The notes: generated by a model not told the origin, from the letters alone. DNA of 64,000 bases from Gammaproteobacteria bacterium (GCA_050291745.1 JBNKKI010000092.1:13103-77102); one strand, 5' to 3'; shown: positions 1 through 22,151, counted from the stretch's first letter. Numbers and translations are program-made.

Positions 1-1
1 T

Positions 2-223
2 GCTACCAGATTATTGCGGCATTTCCGGGCTACAACAATGAGCTGTCAACAGCATTCGTTTTCGATTACCTGTTCCATAGGTATTGCTTGCGCATTACCT
101 CATTACGAAAGTAATCCCGATGCATTGTTAATGGCTGCTGATGAAGCTTTATATGAAGCCAAAGATAATGGAAGAAATCAGATGAGCGTAGCAAATATTG
201 CTCCTCAGAACAGGGTGATTTAA
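2..223 (+). CDS. C-terminal fragment of a GGDEF-domain diguanylate cyclase; the gene begins upstream of the window
   Basis: Open frame from the window edge; the tail ...SIGIA...[25 protein letters not shown] matches the conserved GGDEF C-terminus (ADxALYxAKxxGRN). Confidence 0.6.
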
Positions 224-538
224 CTTTTTTTGATCGCTGTTAGTTTAAACCGGAAAAATCAGTTGATAACGGTGTTTTTGATTTCTTGGCAATTGCGCCT
301 GCATTGCTCTAACGACAGTCATCCCTGGCTTGGAGCAGGCACATCAATCTGTTACGCATCTTTTTCATGCTGATCTGATTTTTCCCGGTTCAAAAACTTC
401 GCAGATACATTCAATTTTTTTATAACTTCTGTTCTTTTCAACTTCGTAAATATCAACCAAACGAGTAAGTATAGAAATGCAGTCTTTCGTCTATAAATCT
501 AAATAATTTCAAAACCAGTTTTCAATAACTTCCATGAT

Positions 539-773
539 CCTGGATTCCGCAGTTGACCGCTCGCAATAGAAGTTAACCTACTGTTTCATAAACCATTACA
601 GTTGATATGTATAATCACCCAATAGGTGAATCCCGCTACGAACTGAATTGCACGTTTGAGGCATCGTATCTCTTCGTTGTAACTCCTTGGAATAGCTGGC
701 TATTCCGCGTCGCTACGCCTTGATCTACACCACCTCAAACGCACAATCAGCTCGTCCAACTGCGGATTCTAGG
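539..773 (+). repeat. MITE-like repeat, copy A (long subtype, about 235 bp) with terminal inverted repeats and a central hairpin
   Basis: Left end CCTGGATTCCGCAGTTGACCG, right end CGTCCAACTGCGGATTCTAGG (inverted); internal hairpin GGAATAGCtggCTATTCC; near-identical to 51678..51913 and inverted relative to 9466..9677 and 36181..36381. Confidence 0.85.
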
Positions 774-874
774 ATGATGATACTTTTAAATAATGACTAA
801 AGTTACAATAGTAAATGATTTCAGTTAAAGTGAAACTGAACTTATATAAATCAAACTATGGCCCTGTTATATTT

Positions 875-1240
875 TCAGGATACTAGCTTAAGCGTTGCTG
901 ATACGGATAGACCAAATACTTGCATGGTCACCCATCCAAGAATCATGACTAATATTGAAATTAAAATACTGCCAACAAATTGAACTTCTAATGCAATACT
1001 ATATGCAAGTGCCTGAGCTAAAAAGACTATTATTGGTGCAATAATGGTTATAGGACCACCAACAGAGCCTAGAAAAATTAATGAAAGAACAGAAAAAAAG
1101 AAAGCGTAGATAATAGCTTTAAACGATTTTGAAAGTGGAACTTTTGTTTTAGTAACTATAGAAGCACTAGTTTGTACGATCAATGCCGAAATAATGAGAA
1201 ATGCCGCAATAATCAAAAGTGCTTTAAGTGGTAATGCCAA
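875..1240 (-). CDS. small hydrophobic membrane protein of unknown function (about 4 TM)
   Basis: 121 aa ORF, almost entirely hydrophobic segments; no recognisable motif. Confidence 0.45.
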   Translation of the reverse strand: MALPLKALLIIAAFLIISALIVQTSASIVTKTKVPLSKSFKAIIYAFFFSVLSLIFLGSVGGPITIIAPIIVFLAQALAYSIALEVQFVGSILISILVMILGWVTMQVFGLSVSATLKLVS

Positions 1241-1662
1241 AAACAGGATCAGTAAAGTTAATCCTCCGAGTAAATAATGCCTATGTGCTCCTTGTTTAAA
1301 TATAGATAAATATCAGTAAGTTAAATAGCTGAAACCTCTGTGTGAGCAATGTGATACTCAGAAAGTAACAGAGCCTTTAGATGTCCTTGATAATGTGAGT
1401 AACTAAATTGTTTGTTCACTGAAGGAATAAAGGTTTTTTGTAACCAGGTTTTGAAATACTCACATGGCTTTTTAGGTGAGTTTTATAATGATGTTGTAGT
1501 TCCTTCACATTTATATATCCCGCTTTTAAAATTCAATGTATTGCAGAAGCCCCGGTGAGAAAATCTTTTCAGGCTAATAAGACATCTTTTAATCTACCAC
1601 AATTTATGTGTGAAGTTAATACTCTATTCATCATCATTCAATTTAGCTATTGGAAAGGAACT

Positions 1663-2409
1663 TTATTTTTCAGATGAGCAAACTGGACAGCTAGGGTTTT
1701 TGGGTATTTGAACTTGTTGCCATTGCATGTTCAGTGCATCAAATAATAATAATTTCCCAGTTATTTCTTCACTATTATTTGTTAAAACCAGCAAAGCCTG
1801 CAGGGCCTGGAAGGTTCCCATAATTCCGACTACCGGACCAAGAACGCCTTCCATCTCACAGGTTTGAGCATTCTCATATTCTCCGTTATATACACACTGG
1901 TAACAGGGGGTGTTAGTGTCTGGTATATAGCTCATGATTTGACCTTCCATACGAATTGCAGCAGCTGAGATGAGTGGTGTTTTAGTTTTGACACATAAAC
2001 GATTAACAGCAAAACGGGTAGGGAAGTTATCACTGCAATCCAGCACTATATCCGATTGAGATATGTAATGCTCAAGCTCTTCCTGATCAAGTTCATGATC
2101 GATCATATCTACTTTACAATCAGGATTAATGGAAACAATAGTTTGCTTAGCTGAATGTGTCTTCAGGTCACCAATAGTTGCAGTTTGATGGATAATTTGT
2201 CTTTGTAAATTAGATTCTTCAACTACATCATAGTCACTAATAATTAAGTGACCGACCCCAGCTGCAGCCAGGTACATTGCAGCAGGAGATCCTAAACCGC
2301 CCATTCCAATCATTAATATATTGCTATGTAAGATTTTATTTTGACCATCTTCACCTATTTGAGGTAATTTTATCTGCCGATCAAAACGTAATTTCTGTGC
2401 TGGTGTCAT
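1663..2409 (-). CDS. MoeB/ThiF/HesA-family E1-like adenylyltransferase
   Basis: Gly-rich nucleotide loop MIGMGGLGSPAAMYLAAAGVG, C-terminal CxxC...CxxC (PCYQC, CPVC) zinc motif; last gene of the AOR operon. Confidence 0.85.
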   Translation of the reverse strand: MTPAQKLRFDRQIKLPQIGEDGQNKILHSNILMIGMGGLGSPAAMYLAAAGVGHLIISDYDVVEESNLQRQIIHQTATIGDLKTHSAKQTIVSINPDCKVDMIDHELDQEELEHYISQSDIVLDCSDNFPTRFAVNRLCVKTKTPLISAAAIRMEGQIMSYIPDTNTPCYQCVYNGEYENAQTCEMEGVLGPVVGIMGTFQALQALLVLTNNSEEITGKLLLFDALNMQWQQVQIPKNPSCPVCSSEK

Positions 2410-2429
2410 AAGATATTCTGGTTGGTCAT

Positions 2430-2744
2430 TTAACCACCACCTTTATGAAAGTATTTGAAAAATTTATCAAAAAAGAAATCAGACTGCTCTTTTGTTGCTG
2501 ACGTAACTGAAAAACTTACTAGTAATACTGGAAGTGAAATTGCTCCAAGGGTTCTTGGAGGCTGTAATTGAGCTTCAATCTGAACAATCATTGAAGAATT
2601 TTTATGGGAAATTGTCCAGCTATTTTGTTTTTCTGAGAGACATTCAAGTTCTGAATGTTCGCCAGTAAAATTACCGTGGATAACATTATTAAATTCAGTT
2701 CTGGTATAACCCATGTCATATTGATATTTAATTGCTTCACTCAT
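2430..2744 (-). CDS. hypothetical 104 aa protein ending in -GGG, in the AOR/E1 operon
   Basis: ORF ends ...FHKGGG*; lies between the MoaD-like gene and the E1-like gene with 14-20 nt gaps; no motif recognised. Confidence 0.5.
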   Translation of the reverse strand: MSEAIKYQYDMGYTRTEFNNVIHGNFTGEHSELECLSEKQNSWTISHKNSSMIVQIEAQLQPPRTLGAISLPVLLVSFSVTSATKEQSDFFFDKFFKYFHKGGG

Positions 2745-2758
2745 GCAAAAGCCATCAA

Positions 2759-3010
2759 TTAACCACCTGCTACTGGTGGCCAGATTGATATAGTATCACC
2801 GGTTAGCAAGGTTTTATTTTTACGATCATCTCCACATACAAATAGGCCATTAAGCAATACGATATGAGCCTGTTCGTCAGTTATTTTAAAAGATTCAATC
2901 AACTGTTGTACTGTGGTTGAATCATCGATATTAATTTCTCTTCGAAAACGTTGATTGCCTGGAGGTAGTAAATGCATAAGTGATGCATATAATTCGATAT
3001 ATATTTTCAT
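2759..3010 (-). CDS. MoaD/ThiS-family ubiquitin-like sulfur-carrier protein
   Basis: 83 aa, C-terminus ...WPPVAGG* (Gly-Gly end), adjacent to the E1-like enzyme. Confidence 0.8.
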   Translation of the reverse strand: MKIYIELYASLMHLLPPGNQRFRREINIDDSTTVQQLIESFKITDEQAHIVLLNGLFVCGDDRKNKTLLTGDTISIWPPVAGG

Positions 3011-3015
3011 TGAAT

Positions 3016-4263
3016 TTAATTGAATTCCTGAGTACAGGACATATAGGCTTCCATAAGTTGAGTAGGATCCTGCATTAATCTGTCTTTCCAGATTCCCAGC
3101 TTTAAACGTGTTTCAATGAGACCTCTCAAAATGCCAATATGCTGTGTTAATCCTGTACAACTAGCACCGATAAGAATATCGTCTTCAAATTGCAGGTTTA
3201 AATATCGATAATCCTGTTCATTAAAAATTTCTACTGAATCACCACCATCAATGCCCATCCAGCTTCCAAAGGAACAGGAAATAAGCCCCAGTGTATCGAG
3301 GACATTCATATTGAGTGATCCTTGGTGATTTACTTTTTTTCCACACATATTCAGAGCTGCGATTCTACCATGATCGGTTGCTGTAGGCTGGATAGCCTGT
3401 ACCTCATGATCTCCTGAAGAAAAATCAAGTGCCTGAGCGACATCACCGGCTGCATAAATATTGGGGTTACTGCTTTGCAGGTATTGATTCACCAGAATTC
3501 CTTTATCAATTTGTATTTCGGTATTTTCGAGGAAATCAGTATTTGACATAACACCTGTTGCTGTTATCACAAGATCGGCTGGTAATAATTGACCATCAGA
3601 TAATTTGACTGAATATGAACCATTGCTATCTTTGATTATAGAGTCGATTTTACTGGAAGTCTTGACATTGATACCTTTATCTATACACCAGGATTTTATC
3701 AGGCCACCCGCTTTGTCATTGAGCATCCGGGGAACCATGCGATTGCCTGCTTCAACAACGGTTAAATTAATGCCACGTTTTAGTAATGACTCAAGGATAA
3801 TACAACCGATAAAACCTGCACCAATTAAAACGACATTAGAGCCAGGTTGAGCTAGTTGAATAATGTCACGAGCATCCTGTAGTGTCCAGCAACTGTGGAC
3901 TATATCCAGTTCAATACCTGGTATAGGTGGTGTATAAGGTTTCGAACCAGTTGAAATTAATAATTTATCGTAATGTATGTTATTAGTACTTTGCAAAATA
4001 ACCAACTGTGCTGTTGTATCGATACTGGTTACAGTATCCTGGATAATATTGATGTTTAAAGCGGCAAAATGTGTAGATGGATCACGTATATAAGTGCCTG
4101 CCTGTTCGATTTTTCCCTCCAGGAAATAGGGAATTGCCATTCGAGAATAGGGAGGCTCAGGCTCACTGCCAATGATGGTGATTTCAGCATCCTGATTATT
4201 CTTTCTGAGTGTTTCAGCTGCGATTACACCGGCTGTACCGGCACCGATTATGAGGAAATGCAT
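3016..4263 (-). CDS. FAD-dependent pyridine-nucleotide-disulfide oxidoreductase family protein (AorC-like NAD(P)H-binding subunit)
   Basis: Two Rossmann motifs (IIGAGTAGV near the N-terminus; VLIGAGFIGC mid-protein); immediately downstream of AOR. Confidence 0.8.
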   Translation of the reverse strand: MHFLIIGAGTAGVIAAETLRKNNQDAEITIIGSEPEPPYSRMAIPYFLEGKIEQAGTYIRDPSTHFAALNINIIQDTVTSIDTTAQLVILQSTNNIHYDKLLISTGSKPYTPPIPGIELDIVHSCWTLQDARDIIQLAQPGSNVVLIGAGFIGCIILESLLKRGINLTVVEAGNRMVPRMLNDKAGGLIKSWCIDKGINVKTSSKIDSIIKDSNGSYSVKLSDGQLLPADLVITATGVMSNTDFLENTEIQIDKGILVNQYLQSSNPNIYAAGDVAQALDFSSGDHEVQAIQPTATDHGRIAALNMCGKKVNHQGSLNMNVLDTLGLISCSFGSWMGIDGGDSVEIFNEQDYRYLNLQFEDDILIGASCTGLTQHIGILRGLIETRLKLGIWKDRLMQDPTQLMEAYMSCTQEFN

Positions 4264-4338
4264 AGGATTTCTCTTTGGTTCGTTATTATTTTATTTAAAG
4301 CTCATCCGGGTAATATTCCCCGGATGAGCTTTAGTTTA

Positions 4339-6189
4339 TTAAAGAGACAGGCGCTGTTTGGTCTCCTGAGTTATCTCACCTTTATCCGTCCATCCTCTAA
4401 TTTCATAATAATGAGGTAGCATTTCACCTAAACGATTAACCTGTCCTTCAGTTGGTCCACTTTTAATGGCTTCTTCCAGAAGTCTCTTTGGTAACTTGTC
4501 ATCATCTGATGTAAAACCGGCTTTATTATTAAATTGCCGTTCCAGATTCCAAACTCGCTCACCAACCTCAAGACATTTTTCAACGCTCCAGTCACCAGCG
4601 CAAGCACCATCAATTTGTGGTGCAATATTATCCATTCCCCAGGCAAAAGTGGTGAAAAGGCAGATTCCAGCAGAATCAACAAGTGCAGTCGCATCCTGAA
4701 AAGCTTTTACCAGTTCAGGCTTACCATCGGTATCTGTCTGTTCGGTTTTTACAGGAATGCCAAGAATTTCTGAGGCAATGGTATAACCCCGAACATGGCA
4801 GGCTCCACGGTTGGAAGTGGCATAGTTTAGACCTATTCCCTGTATCCCTCGAGGGTCGTAAGCCGGAAATTCCTGTCCCTTCACATGCATTGCTAATTCC
4901 GGGTGACCATATTTTTCACAAAGTCTTTTTGAGCCTAGAGCCAGATCTTTACCAAAGCCTTTTCCACTTACCAGTGCTTCAACCGCTGCCACAAAAGCTT
5001 TTGCTGAACCAAATTTTAATTCTATTCCGCCAGTATTTTCTAAAGTTAGAATACCATCTTCAAACATTTCCATTGCTGCAGCAAGAGTACAGCCAAAAGT
5101 AATAGGGTCAAAGCCATCTTCATTACATAGAAAATTGGCATAAGTTAATGCATCCAGATCATCTACGCCCGTATCAGCACCGAGCGCCCAGGCTGCTTCA
5201 TACTCAAGACCACCAGATGCACCCCAGTATTCAGGTTTATTTTCAACTGAGAAATGTCCTTTATCAATAGTCGATATACGACCACAGGCAATAGTGCATC
5301 CAAAGCAACCGGCATTCGTGGTTAGATTGGCTTTACCATCACTAGCACGAAGTTCATGCATTGCTTCTCCGGAAATATTTCCCGCACCTTCGAATCCAAC
5401 ATCTTTCATGTTTCGTGCAGGTAGACCACCGACTCCATTAATAACATTCATCAATACCTGTGTGCCATAAGCAGGTAAACCTTCTCCAGTAACCGCATTT
5501 TCTGCGAGTACGGCTTTGCCGGCATTTACAGCTTCAATAAATTTTGGCATGTCATCAATGTTACCAACTCCCAAAGTGCCTCTTACTGCAACAGCTTTAA
5601 GATTTTTGGATGCCATCACTGTACCAACACCAGAGCGACCTGCAGCTCGATGTTTATCGTTGATTACGGCTGAATAAAGACAACCGGCTTCAGCTGTTCT
5701 ACCAACACAGGCTATACGAATTTGGGGGTCCTGATGAATTTTATGCAGGATATCATCCGTCTCCCAGGCTGATTTACCCCAGAGAGTTTTAGCAGAGCGA
5801 AGTTCTGCTTTATCATTTTCTATCCATAGATAGACAGGTTTTTCTGATTTACCTTCAAAAATAAGCATATCCCATCCGGCATTTTTAAATTCAGCTCCCA
5901 GAAAACCTCCAGAGTTTGAACAGGCGATAGCGCCAGTTAGTGGGCCTTTAGTGATAACTGAGTAACGACCGGCGGTTGAAGCCATGGTTCCAGTCAAAGG
6001 TCCCGTCGCCATGATTAATTTATTATCAGGGCCTAGTGGGTCGCAGGTTGGATCAACTTCTTCACTCAGATATTTAGAAGCAAGACCTCGCTGACCAAGG
6101 TATTCATCAGCCCATTGCATATTTAAGGGCTCAGCTGTACAGGTTCCTTCAGTGAGGTTTACGCGTAATATTTTTCTTGTCCAGGACAT
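4339..6189 (-). CDS. aor: tungsten/molybdenum-pterin aldehyde:ferredoxin oxidoreductase (AOR family)
   Basis: 616 aa; N-terminal MSWTRKILRVNLTEG... and cysteine-containing stretches as in AOR; flanked by a polyferredoxin and MoaD/MoeB-like genes. Confidence 0.85.
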   Translation of the reverse strand: MSWTRKILRVNLTEGTCTAEPLNMQWADEYLGQRGLASKYLSEEVDPTCDPLGPDNKLIMATGPLTGTMASTAGRYSVITKGPLTGAIACSNSGGFLGAEFKNAGWDMLIFEGKSEKPVYLWIENDKAELRSAKTLWGKSAWETDDILHKIHQDPQIRIACVGRTAEAGCLYSAVINDKHRAAGRSGVGTVMASKNLKAVAVRGTLGVGNIDDMPKFIEAVNAGKAVLAENAVTGEGLPAYGTQVLMNVINGVGGLPARNMKDVGFEGAGNISGEAMHELRASDGKANLTTNAGCFGCTIACGRISTIDKGHFSVENKPEYWGASGGLEYEAAWALGADTGVDDLDALTYANFLCNEDGFDPITFGCTLAAAMEMFEDGILTLENTGGIELKFGSAKAFVAAVEALVSGKGFGKDLALGSKRLCEKYGHPELAMHVKGQEFPAYDPRGIQGIGLNYATSNRGACHVRGYTIASEILGIPVKTEQTDTDGKPELVKAFQDATALVDSAGICLFTTFAWGMDNIAPQIDGACAGDWSVEKCLEVGERVWNLERQFNNKAGFTSDDDKLPKRLLEEAIKSGPTEGQVNRLGEMLPHYYEIRGWTDKGEITQETKQRLSL

Positions 6190-6205
6190 TTTTTATCTCC
6201 TCAAT

Positions 6206-6691
6206 TCAAGATGCAGCTGTTTCAGCGGCAGGTAAACTTTTAGAAGCTGAAGCTAGCATACGATTATATCCAGTCCAGTCTGAATCGATATAAGTGATGG
6301 CTGCAGTAGGGCAGGCTTTTGCACAGGCAGGGTCTCCACCACAGAGATCACATTTCACGACTTTACCCGTTGCCTGGGAATAATTGATTGTTCCAAAAGG
6401 ACAGGCGATGGTGCAGACTTTACATCCAACACATTTATCATCAGACACTACTTTGGCACCGGTTGATACGTCTAAACTAATGGCATTGACAGGACAGGCG
6501 CGTTGACACCAGGCTTCATCACATTGTGTACAGGTATAAGGGGCAAATCTGCCTTCATGATGGAAGGTAAAAACTTTAATAAATGATCGAGAGGGATTGA
6601 ATAAACCGGTATGTTCATAAGAACAGGCCAATTCACATTGAAGGCATCCGGTACATTTCACCGGATCAATATGTAAAGATTTTTGCATCAT
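6206..6691 (-). CDS. 4x[4Fe-4S] polyferredoxin, electron-transfer subunit (AorA-like)
   Basis: Four CxxCxxCxxxCP clusters in 161 aa; first gene of the operon. Confidence 0.85.
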   Translation of the reverse strand: MMQKSLHIDPVKCTGCLQCELACSYEHTGLFNPSRSFIKVFTFHHEGRFAPYTCTQCDEAWCQRACPVNAISLDVSTGAKVVSDDKCVGCKVCTIACPFGTINYSQATGKVVKCDLCGGDPACAKACPTAAITYIDSDWTGYNRMLASASKSLPAAETAAS

Positions 6692-7014
6692 CTTCTCCTG
6701 GCTTTGGATTATAATTGTATTGTTTTTTGATTTTACATAAATATCGCCTTATATGTTAATAAAAATATTCTATAAATGGTTTTTTATAGTTATAAAATAC
6801 TACTAAATAAGGGGTTTATACTTTGTCTGGCGTCTTAAAATGACTGCTGATAGAGGAAATATAACTGATATATTTTCAAACTGAATATTACTGCCAGTTT
6901 TAAACATGAGTTAGATAAAAATTTCGTTATCGATTGTTCTTCTATAAAATGCCTGATTTTTTTTACAAATGTGAATTCCTGATGTTACACAAAGTTCAAT
7001 TATATCAATAGACT

Positions 7015-7719
7015 ATGGATACTTTATATGAAGCTACACGAGATGCATTTATGCTACTATTCAGTGGGGATCCGGAAATATGGGGTATCATTGGCATATC
7101 ATTTCGTGTTTCAACTATAGCAATTCTGTGTGCTATTCCTCCGGGTATAATGACAGCTTTTATACTGGCTCATTTCAGGTTTCCAGGTAGAAATCTTTTA
7201 ATATCTATATTTAGTGCATTATTGTCTGTACCTGCCGTAGTTGTTGGGCTGACTTTATTCATACTTTTATCCCGGCAGGGACCTTTTGGTGATTTTAGAT
7301 TATTGTTTACCCAGTCTGCGATGGTGATGGGACAATTTCTGTTAAGTTATCCAATTCTGGTTTCTATGTCTCTGGCTGCCATCCAGTCTGTTGATAATCG
7401 TGCCTGGGAAACTGCCAGAACTTTAGGTGCTAATCCCATTCAAGCTTTGTTGACACTCATGTATGAAGTTCGTTTTGGATTACTGACAGCATTGCTAGCT
7501 GGCTATGGACGTATTATTGCCGAAGTTGGCGCTTCTATGATGCTTGGTGGTAATATTATGCATTACACGAGAAATATTCCGACGGCCATTGCTCTTGAAA
7601 CCAGTAAAGGGAATTTTGCTCAGGGTATGGCGCTTGGCATTGTACTTGTCATTTTATCTTTTTTATTAAATGCTTTTCTTCACTCAATGGATCATAAATC
7701 TTCTACGGCTAATTCTTGA
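7015..7719 (+). CDS. ABC-transporter permease, ModB/TupB/CysT-type (molybdate/tungstate/sulfate class); no partner genes nearby
   Basis: About 5-6 TM; EAA-loop ETARTLGANPIQALLTLMYEVRFGLLTALLAGYGRIIAEVGASMMLGG; no binding-protein or ATPase gene adjacent. Confidence 0.6.
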   Translation: MDTLYEATRDAFMLLFSGDPEIWGIIGISFRVSTIAILCAIPPGIMTAFILAHFRFPGRNLLISIFSALLSVPAVVVGLTLFILLSRQGPFGDFRLLFTQSAMVMGQFLLSYPILVSMSLAAIQSVDNRAWETARTLGANPIQALLTLMYEVRFGLLTALLAGYGRIIAEVGASMMLGGNIMHYTRNIPTAIALETSKGNFAQGMALGIVLVILSFLLNAFLHSMDHKSSTANS

Positions 7720-7951
7720 TTTAGAGTTAATTATTATTCAGTTGAATTTTTCCTATATGGATTCGATGGCATTTAGAGCAGTCAGTGTTACCAAAAATTA
7801 TTGTTAATTTATCAGTATAAAAAACTATAACGATTCAATCCAAATCCGATATCTGATAACTAGAAAAATAAATAAATAGTTTTAAAAACAGCTAATATTT
7901 ATTTAACAGACCATAAAATATTTAAAAAAAGAGTTAAACAGGGAGAAACCT

Positions 7952-9337
7952 ATGTCTGAAAACACATTTGAAATATATTATTATGACGGTATAAAAGCTG
8001 GTCTGGATAAACAGGAAGTCATTCAAAAACTAGCTGCATTACTAAAGCTTCCTGAAGATAAGTCTGAACGAATAATCTCATCCTTCAATCGCGTCATTAG
8101 AAGCGGACTTACTCGAGAACAGGCTGAAAAATATCTTTATGCGCTTGATAATATTGGTTTACAGGTAAGAATGCAGACTCTTCAGGGTCAGGGTCAGGGT
8201 CAGGGTGAGGATGAGGTACCTTCCTCAGCTGAAAAAGATCAGCAGAAAGTTAAATCAGAGCAACCGGCGCAAACTGGTAAAAAACAGGTGGATTCTTCTT
8301 TAAAGGGTAAATCTCAACTTAATCAGACAAAAGATTTTGATCATTCCAGTAAAAGTGTTGCTGTTAAATTTAATGGAACTGGAATGGAATATTTCAAAAT
8401 CTGGATTGTAAATATTTTTCTGACGATTATTACTTTGGGTATATATTCTGCCTGGGCCAAAGTGCGAAATAAGCAATATTTTTATGGTAATACCATTATT
8501 GATGGTAGCAGTTTTCAATACACTGCAACACCGATTACAATTTTAAAAGGCCGTGTTATTGCTGTAGCTATATTTATTCTATACAGCCTGATTGTTAATT
8601 TGCTACCTTTACTGGGGCTTTTGCTTATGCTTATTTTAATCGGCTTTATACCCTGGCTAATCGTAAGATCACTGGCGTTCAATGCTCGTAACAGTATGTA
8701 TAGAAATATTCGTTTCAATTTTACCGGAAAAGCGATTGATGCTTTTAAAGTTTTTATACTTTGGCCTATTTTAATTATCTTTACCTTTGGATTAATTACA
8801 CCTCTAATCTGGTATAAACAAACCAGTTTCATCGTCAGTAATAGTGCTTATGGCGCTACTTCATTTAACTTCAACACATTGGTCGGTAAATATTTCAATA
8901 TATTTTTCATCGCTCTGGGTGGTTTATTCGGGGCGGGTATTCTACTTTCCTTTTTAACAACCATAGCAGGACCAGCGCTTGTAGTGGTTATTTCTCCGTT
9001 GTTTACATTAACTTATATTGTCTTCTTTGCGTACCTGACAACAGCTTTATCTAATTTACAATTCAATTCTACACATCTTGTCCAACATGGGTTTACTTCT
9101 TCTCTCAAAGTAAGTCAGGTAAGCTGGATATATTTCACCAATATTTTACTTATAATTTTAAGCCTTGGTTTAATGATTCCCTGGGCTATGGTCAGAATGG
9201 CTAGATATCGAGCTGAATGTCTCAGTTTACAGGTACAGGGATCAGTTGATAATTTTATCGCTGTAGAACAACAAAAAGTATCTGCTCTGGGTGACGAATT
9301 AAGTGGCGTGTTTGATGTGGAAGTTTCCTTTATATGA
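7952..9337 (+). CDS. DUF898 (YjgN-like) polytopic inner-membrane protein with a cytoplasmic N-terminal extension
   Basis: Threefold repeated TLGIYSAWAKVR / GLITPLIWYK / GLMIPWAMVR modules with following aromatic/Gly stretch; N-terminal approx. 130 aa Lys/Ser/Gln-rich with a QGQGQGQG run. Confidence 0.6.
   Translation: MSENTFEIYYYDGIKAGLDKQEVIQKLAALLKLPEDKSERIISSFNRVIRSGLTREQAEKYLYALDNIGLQVRMQTLQGQGQGQGEDEVPSSAEKDQQKVKSEQPAQTGKKQVDSSLKGKSQLNQTKDFDHSSKSVAVKFNGTGMEYFKIWIVNIFLTIITLGIYSAWAKVRNKQYFYGNTIIDGSSFQYTATPITILKGRVIAVAIFILYSLIVNLLPLLGLLLMLILIGFIPWLIVRSLAFNARNSMYRNIRFNFTGKAIDAFKVFILWPILIIFTFGLITPLIWYKQTSFIVSNSAYGATSFNFNTLVGKYFNIFFIALGGLFGAGILLSFLTTIAGPALVVVISPLFTLTYIVFFAYLTTALSNLQFNSTHLVQHGFTSSLKVSQVSWIYFTNILLIILSLGLMIPWAMVRMARYRAECLSLQVQGSVDNFIAVEQQKVSALGDELSGVFDVEVSFI
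8183..8206 (+). repeat. in-frame hexanucleotide repeat (CAGGGT)x4 encoding QGQGQGQG inside the DUF898 gene
   Basis: Four perfect tandem CAGGGT units seen directly. Confidence 0.9.
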
Positions 9338-9465
9338 TATCGATTCAGGGACCGTTCTTTTCAAACAGGAGGTCTCGTCGTCAAGCTTCTATATTAGCTT
9401 TCAATCAGTATGATCAGGTCGAAGTTTTTAATGATCAATGAAAATCATGAGTGACATCAAGTCAA

Positions 9466-9677
9466 CCTGGAATTCGCAGTTGGACGAGTTGATTGTGCGT
9501 TTGAGGTAGTGTAGATCTAGGCGTTACAACGAAGAGATACGCCGCCTCACACTTGCAATTCAGTTCGTAGCAGTATGCACCGATTGGGCGATTTTTCCAG
9601 GATTATACACACCAACTGTCATGGTTTATGAAACAGTGGGTTAACCGCTATTGCGAGCGGTCAACTGCGGAATCCAG
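9466..9677 (-). repeat. MITE-like repeat, copy B (short subtype, about 212 bp; central hairpin deleted, about 11 nt insertion)
   Basis: CCTGGAATTCGCAGTTGGACGAG...CGAGCGGTCAACTGCGGAATCCAG; inverted orientation relative to copy A. Confidence 0.85.
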
Positions 9678-10208
9678 ATTCATGTAGAGTTTCTCCGCGC
9701 CTGAGTAATACAACTCGTTACATTTTATTCAACAATGACGATTATTTCGAAACTCTCAGACGTAAAATATTTACACAGCATTACGTGCATAGTATGAACC
9801 GTCTGCAAGTTGAAAAAAATCGGAATTTAGATACGACAGTAAAAACTGATATTGAGAAACAAACGCTTAAAAAATATTCATCTTATCTTTCTAGGTTGAA
9901 ACACCGAAGCGAATTAAACGGTTTCTGGAGCTTGATAAGTAATCTATTACAAATTTAAGATATGGAAAATTGTATTAATCTTTGCAATATACTGATATTA
10001 ATGTATTTTAACTTTGAGGAACCCTTGATTAATGCCGGATCCAGAGAGTAGTGTGATGAAATGTTTCTGGACGCGACTAAAAGTGCAGGTAAATGCCAGT
10101 TATTACAAAACTTTTCAAGGTGGAATTGAAATTTTTGACCACTATTCACCTGTTCGCGTATTAATGAGAGATTCCACTATTAACACTTAATTTAAGAGTA
10201 CAGTTTCT

Positions 10209-13200
10209 ATGGCGACTAAATCTTTATCACTTGGCGAAATTTTAACCAGTCAGGTTATAACTCTACCGCCCGATAGCCAGGTTAGTCATGCTCTTGATAA
10301 AATGCGTGAGAAAAAAATAAGTGCAATTGTCATAGTTCAGGACAGCAAGCCGATAGGTATTTTTACTGAGCGTGATGCCGTGATGATGGTTTTCAATAAT
10401 GAAAATATCAGTCATATTCTGTTAAAAGATGTGATGACTACCCATCTTATTTCCGCTGCTGCGACGATGGATTATCGCGAAGCCTATCGAATGATTAAAA
10501 GTCATAACTTCCGTCATCTGGTCGTGGTTGATGAACAGAAAAATCTGTTAGGGATTCTCTCTGAATCAAATTTCCTGGATCATCTGGGAAATGAATTTCT
10601 TGTTCGATATAAAGAGGTTGGGTCTTTAATGACTCAGACTGTTATCACTTTACCAGTTGATGCGAGCATAAAAGATGCTATTCAACTTATGGCTCATAAT
10701 CGAATATCCTGCATAGTTCTGGAATCTAAAGGTCTACCGAAGGGGATCTTCACTGAGCGAGATTTAATTAAACTGGATAACCATTCTCCAGGTCTGCTTG
10801 CTAAACCAATCAGAAATATTATGTCTTCACCTGTTAAGACAATACTAAAAGAGGAATCTTTACCCAACGCTATTGAAAAAATGGAACGTTCAGGAATACG
10901 TCGCCTTGTTGTTGTTGATGATCAAAATAATATAATCGGACTGATAACACGAAGTGATATCGTTAAACAACTGTATGATCGCCATATAGAGCATTTACAG
11001 AATATTATTAGAGACCGTGAAGAAGAGTTAAAGCTGACTCAGAAACAGCTGAGTATAATGAATGAGCTGATTCAAACTCAACAGCTATTAGAGGAAAAGC
11101 AAATTGAGCTTGAACTTGCATTAGATGCAGGAAAAATTTTCACCTGGAAGCTGTACGCCCGTGATAAATTAATATTCAGTGATTCAAGGATGGCTCAAGT
11201 ATTTGATCTTGATACTGCTCAGATAGAAAAAGGAATTCCCCTTGAACTGTTTATTGCAATAATTGATGAGCAGGATCATGAGCTTATCTATAAATCTATA
11301 GAACATAGTATAAAGACCGGTGAGAATTTTCGTGTTGATTTTCGTATCAGTAAAGGCGATGAAGTAAAATATTTTAAAGCGAGGGGTAAAGCGTCGAAAA
11401 ATAAAGCCAATGAAATCCTAAGCCTGATAGGGATTATTGCTGATGTTACTGGTGATACTAAACATTTACTTTCGTATAAGAAAAGCCAGCAACAATTACT
11501 TCAGGCCCAGCGTATTGCGCGAATGGGTAATTGGGAACTGGATGCGAAAACGCTTAAAGCATTCTGGTCTGATGATTTACATAAGCTTTTAGGTACCACG
11601 GCTGAAATGGATGTGGGTCTTGGTTTACTTGAGTCTTATGTTCATAAAGCCGATTGGTCTGCTTTGAAGAAATCTATTGAATCAGCGATATTTGATGATA
11701 AAAAACATGAGGTTGAATATAGAGTTCAAGCAGCTGATGGATCTACGCACTGGGTATACTGTAAAGCCAAAAATATTAAAGATCATTCTGGGAAAGTCAA
11801 AAAACTGAGTGGGATTTTACAGGATATTACCGAACGTAAATATAAAGATGAAAAAATACGTTTATCAACAGCGGTATTTGAAAATTCACTGGAAGGCATA
11901 CTAATTACCGATATTGATGGAAATATTGTTGATGTAAATCCTGCTTTTTCCGATATTACAGGATACTCTTACGAGGATGTGATTGGTCAAAATACCAGAA
12001 TATTTAAATCGGGCCATCATGATGAAAAATTCTATGCTCAAATATGGCAGTCACTTAATGATTTCGGACAATGGCGCGGTGAAATCTGGAATCGACGTAG
12101 AGATGGTTCAGTTTTTCCTGAGTGGGAAAATATAAGTAGTGTGTTTGATGATCAGGGTAACAGGACGCATTATGTTTCTGTTTTTTCAGATATTAGTCAG
12201 ATTAAAAATACGCAGATAAAACTTGACTATCTGGCTCATCATGATGCTTTAACTGATTTACCTAACCGGCTGTTACTCAACGAGCGCTTAAATCAGGCAA
12301 TTCGTCATGCTAAACGATTATCCTCTAAGATGGCGATATTTTTTCTGGATCTGGATAATTTTAAGCACATTAATGACAGTCTGGGGCATCCTACCGGTGA
12401 TAGTTTACTTAAAGCTGTAACGGCTAAATTGCTGGAAACTGTTCGCCAGGATGACACAGTAGCTCGCATCGGCGGCGATGAATTTGTGTTATTACTGGAA
12501 GATATTTCCAGGCCTGAAAATGCAATTCTGATGGCTGATAAACTACTCGCTATTTTTCAGCATTCTTTTGATCTTAAGGATCATCAAATCGGTATCACAG
12601 CCAGTATGGGAATTTGTCTATATCCAGAGGATGGGGAGGATACTGAAACGCTTATGCGAAATGCAGATTCTGCTATGTATCTTGCGAAAACTGAAGGACG
12701 CAATACCTATCAGTTTTACACTAAGGAATTGACTCGAAATGCTTTTGAAAGAGTATTGCTTGAAAATAATTTACGAAAAGCTATCGATAATAAGGAATTC
12801 CTGCTTCATTTTCAGCCGCAATATAATTTAACGGATTTAAAGATAATAGGATTCGAAGCCCTGATTCGTTGGAATCATCCTGATCTAGGAATCTTATCTC
12901 CGGTGAAATTTATTCCTATCGCAGAAGATTCCGGTCTTATCATACCTATTGGAAAATGGGTTTTAACTGAAGCCTGTCTTGTTGCAAAACAATGGCTGGA
13001 CAGTGGCTATGACTTTGGCAGAATTGCCGTTAATATTGCCGGACCTCAATTACAGCGAGGTAATCTTATCAATGATGTCAATGAAGCATTAAAATTGAGC
13101 GGTTTAGCTGCCAATTATCTGGAGTTGGAAATTACGGAAGGTTTTATCATGCAACAGGCTAAGGATGCTATACAACAATTAAATGAATTAAGGATAATGG

Positions 13201-13508
13201 GTATCACAATTTCGATAGATGATTTTGGTACTGGATATTCCTCTCTCAGTTATTTAAAGCAGCTACCGGTTCAAAAAATTAAAATTGATCAATCTTTTAT
13301 CAGGGATATTCCTGATGATACAAATGATATGGCTATAGCAGATGCCATTATAGCCATGGGTAAATCTCTCGGATTAATTGTTATCGCTGAGGGTGTTGAA
13401 ACCCAGCAACAAGCTGATTTTTTAAAGCAGTTTGGTTGTCAGGAAGCGCAGGGTTTCTTATATAATAAACCATTAAGCATTGAAGAAATTCATAAACAGT
13501 TTATTTAA
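10209..13508 (+). CDS. CBS-pair(x2)-PAS-GGDEF-EAL c-di-GMP signalling protein
   Basis: 1099 aa; two CBS pairs at the N-terminus, PAS region, GGDEF (RIGGDEF present), EAL (EALIRW, DDFGTGYSS, QGF). Confidence 0.9.
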   Translation: MATKSLSLGEILTSQVITLPPDSQVSHALDKMREKKISAIVIVQDSKPIGIFTERDAVMMVFNNENISHILLKDVMTTHLISAAATMDYREAYRMIKSHNFRHLVVVDEQKNLLGILSESNFLDHLGNEFLVRYKEVGSLMTQTVITLPVDASIKDAIQLMAHNRISCIVLESKGLPKGIFTERDLIKLDNHSPGLLAKPIRNIMSSPVKTILKEESLPNAIEKMERSGIRRLVVVDDQNNIIGLITRSDIVKQLYDRHIEHLQNIIRDREEELKLTQKQLSIMNELIQTQQLLEEKQIELELALDAGKIFTWKLYARDKLIFSDSRMAQVFDLDTAQIEKGIPLELFIAIIDEQDHELIYKSIEHSIKTGENFRVDFRISKGDEVKYFKARGKASKNKANEILSLIGIIADVTGDTKHLLSYKKSQQQLLQAQRIARMGNWELDAKTLKAFWSDDLHKLLGTTAEMDVGLGLLESYVHKADWSALKKSIESAIFDDKKHEVEYRVQAADGSTHWVYCKAKNIKDHSGKVKKLSGILQDITERKYKDEKIRLSTAVFENSLEGILITDIDGNIVDVNPAFSDITGYSYEDVIGQNTRIFKSGHHDEKFYAQIWQSLNDFGQWRGEIWNRRRDGSVFPEWENISSVFDDQGNRTHYVSVFSDISQIKNTQIKLDYLAHHDALTDLPNRLLLNERLNQAIRHAKRLSSKMAIFFLDLDNFKHINDSLGHPTGDSLLKAVTAKLLETVRQDDTVARIGGDEFVLLLEDISRPENAILMADKLLAIFQHSFDLKDHQIGITASMGICLYPEDGEDTETLMRNADSAMYLAKTEGRNTYQFYTKELTRNAFERVLLENNLRKAIDNKEFLLHFQPQYNLTDLKIIGFEALIRWNHPDLGILSPVKFIPIAEDSGLIIPIGKWVLTEACLVAKQWLDSGYDFGRIAVNIAGPQLQRGNLINDVNEALKLSGLAANYLELEITEGFIMQQAKDAIQQLNELRIMGITISIDDFGTGYSSLSYLKQLPVQKIKIDQSFIRDIPDDTNDMAIADAIIAMGKSLGLIVIAEGVETQQQADFLKQFGCQEAQGFLYNKPLSIEEIHKQFI

Positions 13509-13584: not shown

Positions 13585-14301
13585 TTAAAATGATAACTGT
13601 TTTTTGACTTCCTTATAATCGATATGACGAACATCTTTGCCATGTTTTAGAAATAAAACATATTCACAGATATTGATTGCATGGTCACCCACTCGTTCAA
13701 GTGCTCTGGCACACCAGGATACACGTAGAGCGTTTTTTATTGTTCTGGGGTCTTCCATCATTAAAGTGATTAACTGTCGCATCAGGGATTCAAACTCTTC
13801 GTTTACTTTTTGATTCTTTTTGAGAGTTTTAAGTGCAACTTCATCATCGAGTCTGGCAAAAGAATTTAAGGCATTATTTAACATACGACTGACAAGTTGT
13901 CCCAGGTGTTCGAGCTTGGCGTATTGCAAGGAAGTTGAGCCTTCATCCAGTAACTCCAGTTCAAATTTACCTAGTTTTTCAGCCTGATCTCCTATTCTTT
14001 CCAGATCAGTTATGGTTTTTATAATGGCCACCACCAGACGAAGATCACTGGCTGCAGGTTGTCTTCTAGCGAGGATTTCAACACACTGGCTATCAATTTC
14101 AACTTCCATTGCATTTATCTTGTAATCTTCTGTAGATACAAGTTGTGCAATTTCTGAATTTGATTCCATTAAAGCCTTTATGCCATTGTTTAACTGGGTT
14201 TCAACCATGCCACCCATGGTTAATACTTTATTTCTAATGTCTTCCAGTTCGTTATCAAATCGTTTCGATATGTGACCGCCTAACGGAGATTCTGTATTCA
14301 T
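13585..14301 (-). CDS. phoU: phosphate-specific transport regulator PhoU
   Basis: 238 aa, duplicated PhoU helices (DxxIEVxxxRI-type motifs), last gene of the pst operon. Confidence 0.9.
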   Translation of the reverse strand: MNTESPLGGHISKRFDNELEDIRNKVLTMGGMVETQLNNGIKALMESNSEIAQLVSTEDYKINAMEVEIDSQCVEILARRQPAASDLRLVVAIIKTITDLERIGDQAEKLGKFELELLDEGSTSLQYAKLEHLGQLVSRMLNNALNSFARLDDEVALKTLKKNQKVNEEFESLMRQLITLMMEDPRTIKNALRVSWCARALERVGDHAINICEYVLFLKHGKDVRHIDYKEVKKQLSF

Positions 14302-14321
14302 AGAGTGTAATATCCTGATGA

Positions 14322-15230
14322 TTATCCAAATTTTCCAGTGATGTAATTTTCAGTCAATTCGTGACGTGGATTGGTAAATATCTGAGAGGTTTCACCAACT
14401 TCAATTATTTTTCCTAAATGAAAATAGGCAGTTCGTTGAGAAACTCTGGCAGCTTGCTGCATAGAGTGGGTTACGATTGCTATTGTGAAATTCTCTCGTA
14501 GTTCATCAATCAATTCCTCAATAATTGCTGTTGCAATAGGGTCAAGTGCAGAAGCGGGTTCATCCATCAGAATAACTTCAGGGCTGACCGCTATTGTCCT
14601 GGCAATACATAACCTTTGCTGTTGTCCACCAGAAAGACCTGTTCCAGGTTCATTTAAGCGATCTTTGACTTCTTTATATAGACCGGCTTTTTCAAGACTG
14701 GTTATGACTATTTCATCAAGATCAGAATTAGTTCTTGCCAGGCCATGTAAACGGGGACCATAAGCTACATTGTCATAAATTGACTTGGGAAAAGGATTAG
14801 GTTTCTGAAATACCATACCAACTCTGGCCCGTAATAATACTGGGTCCATTTTCCTGCTATAAATATCTTCATTATCCAGTAAAAACTCACCACTAACTCG
14901 ACAGCTTGAAATAGTGTCGTTCATTCGATTAAGTGTTCTTAGATAGGTGGATTTACCACAACCTGAAGGTCCAATCAGTGCAATTACTTCATTGCGGCCT
15001 ATATCAAGTGAAGCATCAAAAATCGCCTGTTTTTCACCATAAAATACATTCACATTTCGTGTTTTAAACTTGGCATTTTGCAGAATATTTTCACCAATCG
15101 TGACATGCTGCTTTTGTTTACTACCTGTATCAGTAGCATTATCTGTAATATCTTCTTGCATAGTATCGGGATTCGCTCGAAAAGACTTTGAGAATGTCGT
15201 TGTTGTCTCAGTTAACATCATTCTTACCAC
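14322..15230 (-). CDS. pstB: phosphate ABC transporter ATP-binding protein PstB; the true start is probably downstream of the annotated one
   Basis: Walker [10 protein letters not shown], signature LSGGQQQRL, Walker B ILMDEP; [16 protein letters not shown] matches the PstB N-terminus; annotated start overlaps the pstA stop. Confidence 0.9.
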
Positions 15231-17864: not shown

Positions 17865-17923
17865 TTAGGAAAGATTCAGTAAAAAGTTGAATGAATGTTA
17901 AAGGTAAATACAATTTCAAACCA

Positions 17924-17956
17924 GAAGAAACTCCCGGAATAAACGGGAATTTCTTC
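17924..17956 (-). promoter_or_regulatory. intercistronic stem-loop between pstS and pstC
   Basis: GAAGAAAcTCCCG-gaataaa-CGGGAaTTTCTTC: 12-13 bp stem, 7 nt loop, inside the 114 bp pstS-pstC gap. Confidence 0.5.
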
Positions 17957-17978
17957 AGGCAGGATGTCATAAACTCTC

Positions 17979-19019: not shown

Positions 19020-19081
19020 AATTTCTCCTACAAGAGTTTAATGTGACATAAATCAACTGATGAGCATTATGAAGATTAAAT

Positions 19082-19099
19082 ATGACAGAAATGTTACAA
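19082..19099 (-). promoter_or_regulatory. Pho box (PhoB binding site) upstream of pstS
   Basis: - strand reads TTGTAAC ATTT CTGTCAT (7-4-7 direct repeat) about 63 bp upstream of the pstS start. Confidence 0.6.
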
Positions 19100-19210
19100 A
19101 ACCAAATGTATTTAACGGCTAAATAGTTTAGCCTTCAAACATAATAAAAAATTCATATATCTTCTATTTTAAAATCAAAAATTCCATACATTTCGGGGTT
19201 AATAAATATC

Positions 19211-20779: not shown

Positions 20780-20816
20780 AAAAATTTATGGTTCAAAAAG
20801 TTCCAATATGGATGAG

Positions 20817-22139: not shown

Positions 22140-22151
22140 AATGAGATAAAG

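Follow-up and report, generated by a model that had tools for sequence, protein, structure and literature searches.

It was asked whether six adjacent genes in a 64-kb stretch of gammaproteobacterial DNA (the window) form an aldehyde oxidoreductase operon with a maturation module of its own, and whether the two small Gly-Gly-ended proteins encoded there are both ubiquitin-like. The locus was an ordinary member of the known bacterial cluster in which the genes of the AorABC tungsten aldehyde oxidoreductase are accompanied by cofactor-maturation genes. Its notable point was the second "Gly-Gly" protein, which was not ubiquitin-like and came from an uncharacterised family ending in Gly-Gly-Gly (the GGG family).

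Gene arrangement of the locus

The six minus-strand ORFs were all present in the window (Table 1), with ATG as the start codon of each, and their order and domain content were as the first-pass annotation had described. The intergenic gaps across the cluster were 16, 75, 5, 14, and 20 nt, and the tight spacing given earlier (5–76 nt) was thus measured as 5 to 75 nt. The Pfam search proposed for each protein was run and returned, in gene order, Fer4, AFOR_N with AFOR_C, Pyr_redox_2, ThiS, no family for the 104-aa protein, and ThiF/MoeB.

Table 1. Position and assignment of the features at the locus, numbered from the first nucleotide of the window.
Feature	Position	Strand	Size and basis
aorA: small electron-transfer subunit (WorS)	6206..6691	-	161 aa; Fer4 families, 8c0z_C match
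aorB: tungsten-bis-pyranopterin catalytic subunit (WorL)	4339..6189	-	616 aa; AFOR_N + AFOR_C, 8c0z_A match
Palindromic hairpin in the aorB–aorC spacer; candidate partial terminator or mRNA-stabilising element	4295..4334	-	Stem-loop prediction
aorC: FAD-containing NAD(H)-linked subunit (WorN)	3016..4263	-	415 aa; Pyr_redox_2, 8c0z_E match
aorD (WorX): MoaD/ThiS-type sulfur-carrier protein (predicted)	2759..3010	-	83 aa; Pfam ThiS; ends PPVAGG
aorE-like gene; uncharacterised GGG family, DUF1952/TBP-like fold (model)	2430..2744	-	104 aa; ends KGGG
moeB/thiF-type E1-like adenylyltransferase (predicted), without rhodanese domain	1663..2409	-	248 aa; Pfam ThiF, NF004281
AT-rich divergent intergenic region aorA/tupB; presumed promoter region	6692..7014	.	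Promoter-like hexamers
tupB-like tungstate ABC-transporter permease, divergent from aorA	7015..7719	+	NCBIfam ABC_perm1

Subunits of the predicted aldehyde oxidoreductase

The first three genes had been called AorABC-type, and the solved enzyme of Aromatoleum aromaticum (cryo-EM entry 8c0z) was indeed the best PDB match for each of the three subunits. AorA possessed 16 Cys in four CxxCxxCxxxC-type [4Fe-4S] motifs, matched Fer4 Pfam families, and had 8c0z_C (A. aromaticum AorA) as its best solved relative (E 4.9e-81). AorB matched AFOR_N (E 2.6e-78) and AFOR_C (E 2.9e-133) and was aligned over its full length with 8c0z_A (E 7e-291, 969 bits). The scores of AorB against the Pyrococcus furiosus AOR (1aor), FOR (1b25), and the GAPOR model were 567 bits (E 5.5e-169), 247 bits, and 47 bits, respectively. 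Judged by bit scores, AorB was closer to bacterial AorB than to archaeal AOR, FOR, or GAPOR. Furthermore, Glu331, Tyr443, His464, and Cys509 (A. aromaticum numbering) were all identical in the alignment to 8c0z_A; the first three are active-site residues of the A. aromaticum enzyme and the fourth is a [4Fe-4S] ligand (PMC10413684). AorB shared as much as 90% identity with proteins from marine Gammaproteobacteria MAGs but just 67–69% with AorB of the Rhodocyclales (Thauera and Aromatoleum). AorC matched Pyr_redox_2 (E 6.6e-55) and 8c0z_E (E 2.6e-131), with GxGxxG motifs at residues 7 and 148.

By sequence, AorA, AorB, and AorC are clear orthologues of the structurally solved A. aromaticum AorABC. 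The likeness extended to gene order, since the aorABCDE operon of A. aromaticum EbN1, reported in 2019, encodes in the same order ferredoxin-like, W, and FAD subunits, a MoaD-like protein, and a second small protein (PMC6365974). The likely products of the locus are a tungsten-dependent aldehyde oxidoreductase of three subunits, linked to NAD (Class III WOR, WorS/WorL/WorN), and a three-gene cofactor-maturation module. For tungsten in the predicted cofactor, the neighbouring tupB-like permease was the only pointer and gives an indirect hint. Such an enzyme had been regarded as unusual in an organism of aerobic appearance. This view was not in agreement with Arndt et al., according to whom bacterial three-subunit AORs are found in aerobic or denitrifying mesophiles (PMC6365974).

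Spacer hairpin and upstream region

The aorB–aorC spacer contained a hairpin with a 16-bp stem and an 8-nt loop (dG −28.5 kcal/mol). Of 70 related loci, 60 had a stable hairpin at most 70 nt after the aorB stop codon (median dG −24.1), compared with 20 of 70 (median −14) for control segments inside aorB, and a T-rich tail was also present at 17 of the 70 loci. Through the conserved hairpin, aorC and the maturation genes are probably expressed at a lower level than aorAB, which would fit the stoichiometry of an (AorAB)n-AorC filament. A stoichiometry of (LS)3N has been given (PMC13328260). Because this strong hairpin sits in the 75-nt spacer, a single transcript spanning all six genes of the predicted operon is put no higher than plausible.

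Promoter-like hexamers (TTAACA-18-TAAAAT) were located at 6759..6730 on the minus strand as a consensus match only, and the total count of promoter-like sites was not above the shuffled expectation. No Rfam family, including the Moco/Wco riboswitch, was detected at E ≤ 0.1 in positions 1–10000. The tupB-like permease scored 209.5 bits with NCBIfam ABC_perm1 (cut-off 100) and 204.8 bits with the TupB model NF041773, which was below the cut-off of 320. No tupA was found by tblastn anywhere in the 64-kb window, and neither tupA nor tupC adjoined the tupB-like gene. In relatives, the aor genes adjoined tupA-tupB (L004) or tupB-tupC-tupA (L061).

AorD and the E1-like enzyme

AorD matched Pfam ThiS with 37.3 bits (cut-off 22.5). 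A profile of 34 AorD orthologues, among which the PP-x-AGG C-terminus was invariant, matched the solved MoaD/SAMP1 structures 2m19 (7.8e-6), 1vjk, and 2q5w (full length). The single-sequence AF2 model of AorD had a pLDDT of only 49.5, and the beta-grasp fold is inferred from the matches to solved MoaD structures only. In agreement with the earlier description of the fourth gene, these matches identify AorD as a predicted carrier of the MoaD/ThiS type whose C-terminal Gly-Gly is free.

The last gene product gave an E value of 2.8e-78 with Pfam ThiF and 306.6 bits with NCBIfam NF004281 MoeB (cut-off 266). It contained GMGGLG at residue 35, Cys184, and two Zn-type CxxC motifs at residues 169 and 241, which bore out the annotated MoeB/ThiF E1 with a Zn CxxC. 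Its similarity to E. coli ThiF (1zud, 218 bits) and MoeB (1jw9, 216 bits) was nearly equal, and it was under the cut-off for both equivalog models, TIGR02355 (MoeB) and TIGR02356 (ThiF). On these profile matches, the last gene is assigned as a MoeB/ThiF-type adenylyltransferase. Like the MoeB-MoaD and ThiF-ThiS pairs of E. coli, it kept the nucleotide-binding loop, the Cys184/187 equivalent, and both Zn CxxC motifs, and AorD kept the MoaD-type PPVAGG end. Unlike in E. coli, neither a MoaE nor a ThiG partner was encoded nearby, and the locus had instead a second protein with a glycine tail, whose fold is different. Moreover, no moaE, moaA/C, moeA, or mogA was found within the 64-kb window; therefore, the module would be unable to make the pterin alone. 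The E1 could be the only MoeB/ThiF of the cell rather than a dedicated copy.

A dedicated role in cofactor maturation had been suggested for these genes, and this is also how such clusters are interpreted in the literature (PMC1779556, PMC6365974, PMC9295118). Clusters of AOR-linked MoaD, MoeB, flavoprotein, and ferredoxin genes were reported in 2006 and proposed to make the pterin for the W cofactor (Iyer, Burroughs & Aravind, PMC1779556). The present locus was like those neighbourhoods, in which MoaD strictly adjoins AOR and is frequently accompanied by MoeB, a pyridine-nucleotide-disulfide oxidoreductase, and a 4Fe-4S ferredoxin (PMC1779556). It was also like those in the WOR classification of 2026, where WorX/ThiF adjoin the WOR genes and a part in pterin biosynthesis is presumed for 'worX and thiF' (PMC13328260).

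Conservation of the module among relatives

Gene neighbourhoods were counted for the 59 species-level genomes whose sequence extended far enough beyond aorB. Downstream of aorB, aorC and aorD were each present in 59/59 and the GGG family in 56/59. The gene directly after the GGG gene was moeB in 33 of the 59 loci, mostly from Gammaproteobacteria MAGs, and tupB in 19, while six had neither at that position. The six-gene arrangement was far beyond chance. Dozens of species-level genomes had the same gene order, as did metagenomic relatives at a greater distance.

Loci with tupB in place of moeB, or with neither, would be expected if moeB were a housekeeping MoeB/ThiF, syntenic by accident, and the small genes were dispensable passengers outside any dedicated module. 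The E1, which scored equally for ThiF and MoeB and fell into no special subfamily, and the other Moco genes, none of which was seen in the window, also favour this explanation. It is nevertheless quite unlikely. The adjacency of aorD, the GGG gene, and moeB persisted as AorB identity fell from 90% to about 70%, and a remote member of the GGG family (P0085, profile E 2.9e-5) lay within the same six-gene order. In addition, the called ORFs abutted or overlapped by a few bases in many loci (e.g., L020 and L029), and aorDE measurably improve the recombinant enzyme (PMC9295118).

The 104-aa protein with a Gly-Gly-Gly end

The 104-aa protein had the C-terminus KGGG, with a free Gly-Gly. Its model (pLDDT 84.5) showed a beta-alpha-beta4-alpha fold, for which the best structural matches were KA1/TBP-like domains. 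The hhalign probability between the GGG-family profile and the AorD/MoaD profile was 0.2%, with no detectable kinship. A beta-grasp or ubiquitin-like identity of the 104-aa protein was ruled out by these two results. The claim of two ubiquitin-like Gly-Gly proteins therefore stood for the MoaD/ThiS-type product of the fourth gene and failed for the 104-aa protein, which lacked the beta-grasp fold in structure prediction, the very outcome that the first-pass annotation had named as contrary to its reading.

Clustering at 50% identity gave 138 clusters for the GGG family, and the GGG end was present in 140 of the 150 sequences listed. The Gly-Gly-Gly was preceded by Lys or Arg, and one Arg and this flexible [KR]GGG end were the sole universally conserved polar features. 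No cysteine was conserved in the family, and the Thauera-type members had none at all. In the model, the GGG tail came straight after a long helix and was not an extended tail of the beta-grasp kind; its geometry may not fit an E1 active site.

The modelled fold was the same as that of the C-terminal DUF1952 domain of 1v8c, the 'MoaD related protein' of Thermus thermophilus HB8, which consists of a MoaD and a DUF1952 domain and has an RGGG end. By sequence, the 104-aa protein itself matched neither PF09189 (DUF1952) nor 1v8c, and PF09189 was matched by 7 of 131 GGG-family members (best E 6e-4). The GGG-family profile aligned with 1v8c at E 1.5, which was not significant alone, and the aligned part covered the xLGxLxLPxLxV hairpin motif, which both have in common, and the RGGG end. 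Unlike in the present locus, MoaD and DUF1952 are fused in one polypeptide in Thermus, and therefore its MoaD Gly-Gly is internal. No function of 1v8c was found in the literature.

The 104-aa protein is the putative positional equivalent of AorE, and its identity with the published A. aromaticum AorE is suggested by the position of the gene in related Rhodocyclales genomes. The Thauera and Denitromonas loci had a GGG-family gene at the aorE position, while Aromatoleum anaerobium had none there. The Thauera/Denitromonas operons were without moeB, and tupB(-tupC-tupA) followed the small genes, where moeB lies in the present locus. Both AorD and AorE of A. aromaticum were termed 'MoaD-like' (PMC6365974), whereas the protein at the AorE position here was not. 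A GGG/DUF1952-like protein appears as a separate conserved component in neither PMC1779556 nor PMC13328260.

Proposed maturation of the enzyme

By analogy with the established MoeB-MoaD pathway, MoeB would adenylate the terminal glycine of AorD, and a persulfide donor would turn the AorD-adenylate into a thiocarboxylate. The sulfur would then be passed to the pyranopterin dithiolene (four S per tungsten centre) or used for sulfuration of the finished cofactor, giving fully active AOR upon operon induction. In a previous study, the specific activity of AOR was 4.5 U/mg without and 16 U/mg with co-expressed aorDE, the W content dropped from 1.06 to 0.39, and the activity with extra tungstate was 85 U/mg (PMC9295118 Table 1).

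The same three proteins might instead form a sampylation-like conjugation system, in which AOR subunits or other proteins are tagged via the C-terminal glycines of AorD and the GGG protein and no sulfur is transferred. Archaeal SAMP1-type proteins act both as MoaD and as protein modifiers, and the CBASS Cap2/CD-NTase system is a precedent for E1-dependent conjugation of a non-beta-grasp protein via a C-terminal glycine. AorD and MoeB gave weak matches to the NCBIfam SAMP1 and UbaA models, and the AOR-adjacent Ubl on an Azospirillum plasmid was annotated as 'ubiquitin-like small modifier protein 1'. Such a system is highly improbable here, as no E2-like, JAMM/deconjugating, or ligase gene occurred in any inspected locus, and purified AOR consists of three unmodified subunits of the expected masses, with AorD and AorE absent (PMC6365974).

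The GGG protein, whose gene always comes directly behind aorD, is most likely a separate, non-beta-grasp partner in complex with AorD, and its glycine tail would enter an active site. One conceivable role is that of a cofactor chaperone or insertase that is not an E1 substrate: its TBP/Bet v1/KA1-like sheet-and-helix domain would take up pyranopterin or W-pterin and deliver it to apo-AorB, and the GGG tail would serve for docking only, for example at the partner site of AorD. Other molybdo- and tungsto-enzymes are served by dedicated chaperones, and the lack of a conserved cysteine, complete in Thauera-type members, is consistent with this role. The aorDE genes raise the activity per tungsten and not the W content (PMC9295118), as would be expected if the cofactor were being correctly inserted or finished. 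A chaperone is possible but rather unlikely, since it leaves unexplained the invariant, Lys/Arg-preceded Gly-Gly-Gly end across 138 clusters, the constant MoaD-type neighbour, and the frequent E1 neighbour; a domain of about 100 aa is also too small for a closed Bet v1 pocket.

For the glycine tail, the active site preferred as a hypothesis is that of MoeB, so that the GGG protein would be a second adenylated or thiocarboxylated carrier. In its general form, this proposal makes the GGG family a new class of proteins without the beta-grasp fold, in which a MoeB-type E1 would adenylate the C-terminal glycine for conversion into a thiocarboxylate and which would work in tandem with AorD; as such it is speculative and, on balance, unlikely. 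If true, it would bear on the activation of AOR-family enzymes by sulfide, which is a long-standing observation. One possible role of the GGG protein would then be to provide a sulfur not supplied by the classical MoaD/MoaE route, for instance a labile sulfur ligand of the tungsten. The cryo-EM/QM model prefers two oxo ligands on W and no sulfido ligand (PMC10413684).

Gene Organization and Relation to Known Clusters

The six open reading frames that the first-pass annotation had placed on the minus strand were found at exactly those coordinates, and family searches against Pfam and NCBIfam returned the expected domains for genes 1–4 and 6. The successive gaps from gene 1 to gene 6 were 16, 75, 5, 14, and 20 nt. 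At the sequence level, the locus was shown to code for an enzyme of the AorABC type together with a carrier of the MoaD type, an adenylyltransferase of the E1 type, and a fifth protein that is conserved and glycine-tailed (hereafter the GGG protein).

Features of the aor locus and its surroundings in the window (families from Pfam/NCBIfam)
Feature	Position	Strand	Size and start	Family or description
Gene 1 (aorA)	6691..6206	-	161 aa, ATG	Four-cluster ferredoxin
Gene 2 (aorB)	6189..4339	-	616 aa, ATG	AFOR_N + AFOR_C
Gene 3 (aorC)	4263..3016	-	415 aa, ATG	Pyr_redox_2
Gene 4 (aorD)	3010..2759	-	83 aa, ATG	ThiS
Gene 5 (GGG protein)	2744..2430	-	104 aa, ATG	No Pfam or NCBIfam family
Gene 6 (moeB)	2409..1663	-	248 aa, ATG	ThiF/MoeB
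Hairpin	4295-4334		16-bp stem	Fills most of the aorB-aorC spacer; dG -28.5 kcal/mol
Orphan tupB-like tungstate permease	7015-7719	+		Divergent from aorA; no adjacent tupA or tupC

In Iyer, Burroughs and Aravind (2006), MoaD genes stand in strict adjacency to AOR genes, often in the company of genes for MoeB, a 4Fe-4S ferredoxin and a pyridine-nucleotide-disulfide oxidoreductase, and the adjacent MoaD/MoeB genes were proposed to supply the pterin for the tungsten cofactor (PMC1779556). The name aorABCDE for the operon comes from Arndt et al. (2019), who called AorD and AorE MoaD-like maturation factors (PMC6365974). Furthermore, Winiarska et al. (2022) added plasmid-borne aorDE, which raised the specific activity from 4.5 to 16 U/mg and lowered the tungsten content from 1.06 to 0.39, and aorDE with extra tungstate gave 85 U/mg (PMC9295118). 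The 2026 tungsten oxidoreductase classification lists the ThiS-like gene as WorX, "exact function unknown" (PMC13328260). From these four papers, the central idea of the first-pass annotation, an AOR operon with its own MoaD/MoeB-type maturation genes, was therefore already published. The locus is a further case of a known gene-cluster type, and as an operon it adds little. The cluster had also been considered odd for an aerobic-looking organism, a view that did not hold, since three-subunit AORs are found in aerobic or denitrifying mesophiles (PMC6365974).

A foreign origin was rejected on composition: the operon genes had 33–44% GC against 38% for the window, with no convincing island signal. 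Downstream of moeB by 422 nt, a very hydrophobic 121-aa protein of no family is encoded at 875-1240 (-); it also occurred in an identical Logan contig and is probably unrelated to the operon.

Enzyme Subunits

For all three subunits, the best solved-structure match was 8c0z, the AorABC of Aromatoleum aromaticum determined by cryo-EM, with E values of 4.9e-81 for AorA, 7e-291 for AorB, and 2.6e-131 for AorC. The AorB match was full length and well above those of P. furiosus AOR, FOR, and WOR5. Residues Glu331, Tyr443, and His464 and the cluster ligand Cys509 have roles in catalysis and electron transfer in the A. aromaticum enzyme (PMC10413684), and their equivalents in the window AorB were identical. 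In addition, AorA carried four cluster motifs with 16 cysteines, and AorC two GxGxxG motifs. Judged by sequence, the enzyme is a Class III (WorL/WorS/WorN) member under the 2026 classification, a class whose sole characterised member is the A. aromaticum AOR (PMC13328260). AorABC-type tungsten enzymes attract interest chiefly as biocatalysts that reduce acids and oxidise aldehydes.

AorD Carrier and E1-Like Enzyme

The proposed MoaD-like identity of gene 4 was borne out: AorD scored above the Pfam ThiS threshold, and its profile, built on 34 orthologues whose PP-x-AGG end is invariant, matched solved MoaD and SAMP1 structures. The single-sequence structure prediction of AorD reached a pLDDT of 49.5, too poor to serve as fold evidence. 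Likewise, the MoeB/ThiF E1-like reading of gene 6 agreed with a score above the NCBIfam MoeB subfamily cut-off. The protein resembled E. coli ThiF and E. coli MoeB to the same degree and possessed a nucleotide loop, a loop cysteine, and two CxxC motifs; no rhodanese domain was present in its 248 residues.

Conservation of the Cluster

A scan with AorB, taking one genome per species, yielded 80 loci, mostly from marine and environmental gammaproteobacterial MAGs (AorB identity 79–90%), together with Rhodocyclales (67–69%) of the genera Thauera, Denitromonas, and Aromatoleum. Open reading frames were called in these loci and searched with the window proteins and an HMM of the 104-aa family. Gene order was counted in the 59 loci in which 3.3 kb or more of sequence followed aorB. 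There, aorC and the MoaD-like gene were each present in 59/59 and the 104-aa family in 56/59; moeB occupied the position after the 104-aa slot in 33 loci, and a tupB-like permease gene did so in 19. Moreover, a distant GGG-family member (P0085, profile E 2.9e-5 to the window protein) was surrounded by the same six-gene order. These counts and the order around the distant member establish that the cluster is real and conserved with two main variants, the window having the moeB variant.

Several individual loci departed from the common order. In L048, aorD was without a GGG-family gene after 5958, and in L077, the stretch matching the GGG-gene slot was a 224-base run of N. Locus L089 (6468-9804) carried an AorC-like flavoprotein gene, a ThiS-like gene, and a GGG-family gene, followed by tupB-like and ABC ATPase genes; its upstream neighbor was an aminotransferase class V gene, without aorA or aorB. 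A relative of the aorD-GGG-moeB module lay on a 56.7-kb bacterial-looking contig (GCA_024449465.1, JAANSR013044344.1). Its accession number points to a very large assembly, possibly a eukaryotic one, in which the contig may represent a symbiont or contaminant.

Annotated plasmid AOR loci were set aside, the best of them (Azospirillum, 52% identity) having a different architecture. On the Azospirillum lipoferum plasmid NC_016586.1 (5513-13791), ferredoxin, AOR, and "ubiquitin-like small modifier protein 1" genes preceded NuoL/NuoB/NuoC-like genes and one for a Ni-hydrogenase large subunit, an arrangement that suggests a membrane-bound complex.

The GGG Protein Family

The GGG/DUF1952-like family is the most interesting element of the locus. 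The 104-aa protein matched no Pfam or NCBIfam family, and every one of its named relatives was annotated "hypothetical protein". Searching 1.84 billion representative proteins with the family profile gave 138 clusters. Among the 150 sequences listed, 140 ended in Gly-Gly-Gly, and the preceding residue was nearly always Lys or Arg. The first-pass annotation had taken this protein for a second ubiquitin-like Gly-Gly protein, a reading that did not hold up; no link to MoaD was found, the profile–profile comparison of the GGG and AorD families giving a probability of 0.2%. The family appears to be distinct, widespread, and unannotated, with an invariant Gly-Gly-Gly end.

The family profile aligned weakly to the last 44 residues of the Thermus thermophilus HB8 "MoaD related protein" (crystal structure PDB 1v8c), including a common xLGxLxLPxLxV hairpin motif, and the 1v8c chain ends in RGGG. 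Pfam DUF1952, a model built on the C-terminal domain of 1v8c, was weakly matched by seven GGG-family members. A word-index search with the 44-residue fragment found a single metagenomic fragment. In its Thermus-like contig (695 bp, with a frameshift), the MoaD domain was directly followed by the DUF1952 domain (49-584). The Thermus protein is a natural MoaD-DUF1952 fusion in which the MoaD Gly-Gly is apparently internal; the two parts form one polypeptide there, whereas AorD and the AorE-like protein are encoded by neighboring genes in the window. No discussion or published function of the 1v8c C-terminal domain was found in the literature searched.

By position, on the basis of the Thauera and Denitromonas loci, the 104-aa protein is the equivalent of A. 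aromaticum AorE (published as WP_041646407, with AorD as WP_041646405); the GGG gene was lacking from the AorE slot in one Aromatoleum species. In this species, Aromatoleum anaerobium, aorD had no GGG-family gene after it (10499-10592), and tupB followed almost directly. The positional equivalence, the structure model, and the weak link to 1v8c indicate, indirectly, that the AorE-position factor would not be a second MoaD.

Proposed Role in Cofactor Maturation

Following the MoeB–MoaD paradigm, the E1 would adenylate AorD, which would next be thiocarboxylated and might pass its sulfur either into the dithiolene of the pyranopterin or onto the cofactor once assembled. The presence of a labile sulfur ligand in AOR-family enzymes was explicitly called an open question (PMC12727526); in the A. 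aromaticum structure, however, two oxo ligands gave the best fit (PMC10413684). No moaE, moaA/C, mogA, or moeA was found within the 64-kb window.

For the GGG protein, the favoured reading is an obligate AorD partner that would place its own tail in an enzyme active site, most plausibly that of the E1. Four observations favour this reading. Beyond one arginine and the [KR]GGG end, no polar feature is conserved throughout the family; the GGG gene always follows aorD; the two domains are fused in Thermus, a classical indication of proteins working together; and the E1 gene is often directly next, the called ORFs abutting or overlapping. The main alternative is a chaperone that binds pterin, a role that the predicted fold class would suit. 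An E2-like role was ruled out, since the family has no conserved cysteine. In addition, activity per tungsten was roughly ten times higher with aorDE (computed from the published data of PMC9295118), which fits a cofactor finishing step better than simple metal loading.

Tungsten cofactor finishing in AOR-family enzymes is described as poorly understood in recent literature, and knowledge of an AorE-type factor would sharpen experiments on it. Highly active recombinant AOR needs a second maturation factor co-expressed, and the heterologous production of AOR-family enzymes could benefit.

Hairpin, Tungstate Transport, and Neighboring Genes

A stable hairpin directly 3' of aorB was present in 60/70 related loci (L004-L083) compared with 20/70 control segments. 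Its position was kept and its sequence was not; a T-rich tail was added in 17 loci. The aorB-aorC hairpin is a candidate partial terminator or stabiliser setting the AorAB:AorC stoichiometry. Its probable effect is that aorC and the maturation genes are expressed less strongly than aorAB, which would agree with the (LS)3N stoichiometry of the filament (PMC13328260). No leader riboswitch (Moco/W-co) or other Rfam family was detected at E <= 0.1 in 1-10000.

No tupA was detectable in the 64-kb window, and no tupC beyond generic ABC ATPases. By comparison, the close relative L004 had tupA-tupB at the place of the window's tupB, and Denitromonas had tupB-tupC-tupA after aorE.

Between tupB and the pst-phoU operon lie genes for a DUF898 membrane protein whose N terminus is extended by a long Gln/Gly-rich stretch (7952-9337, +) and for a 1099-aa protein (10209-13508, +), CBS-PAS-GGDEF-EAL signalling-like when read by eye; in L004, phoU abuts tupB directly. 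A complete phosphate-uptake and regulation block follows at 13585-22850, comprising phoU-pstB-pstA-pstC-pstS on the minus strand, a PitA/sulfate-permease-like gene, and phoR-phoB.
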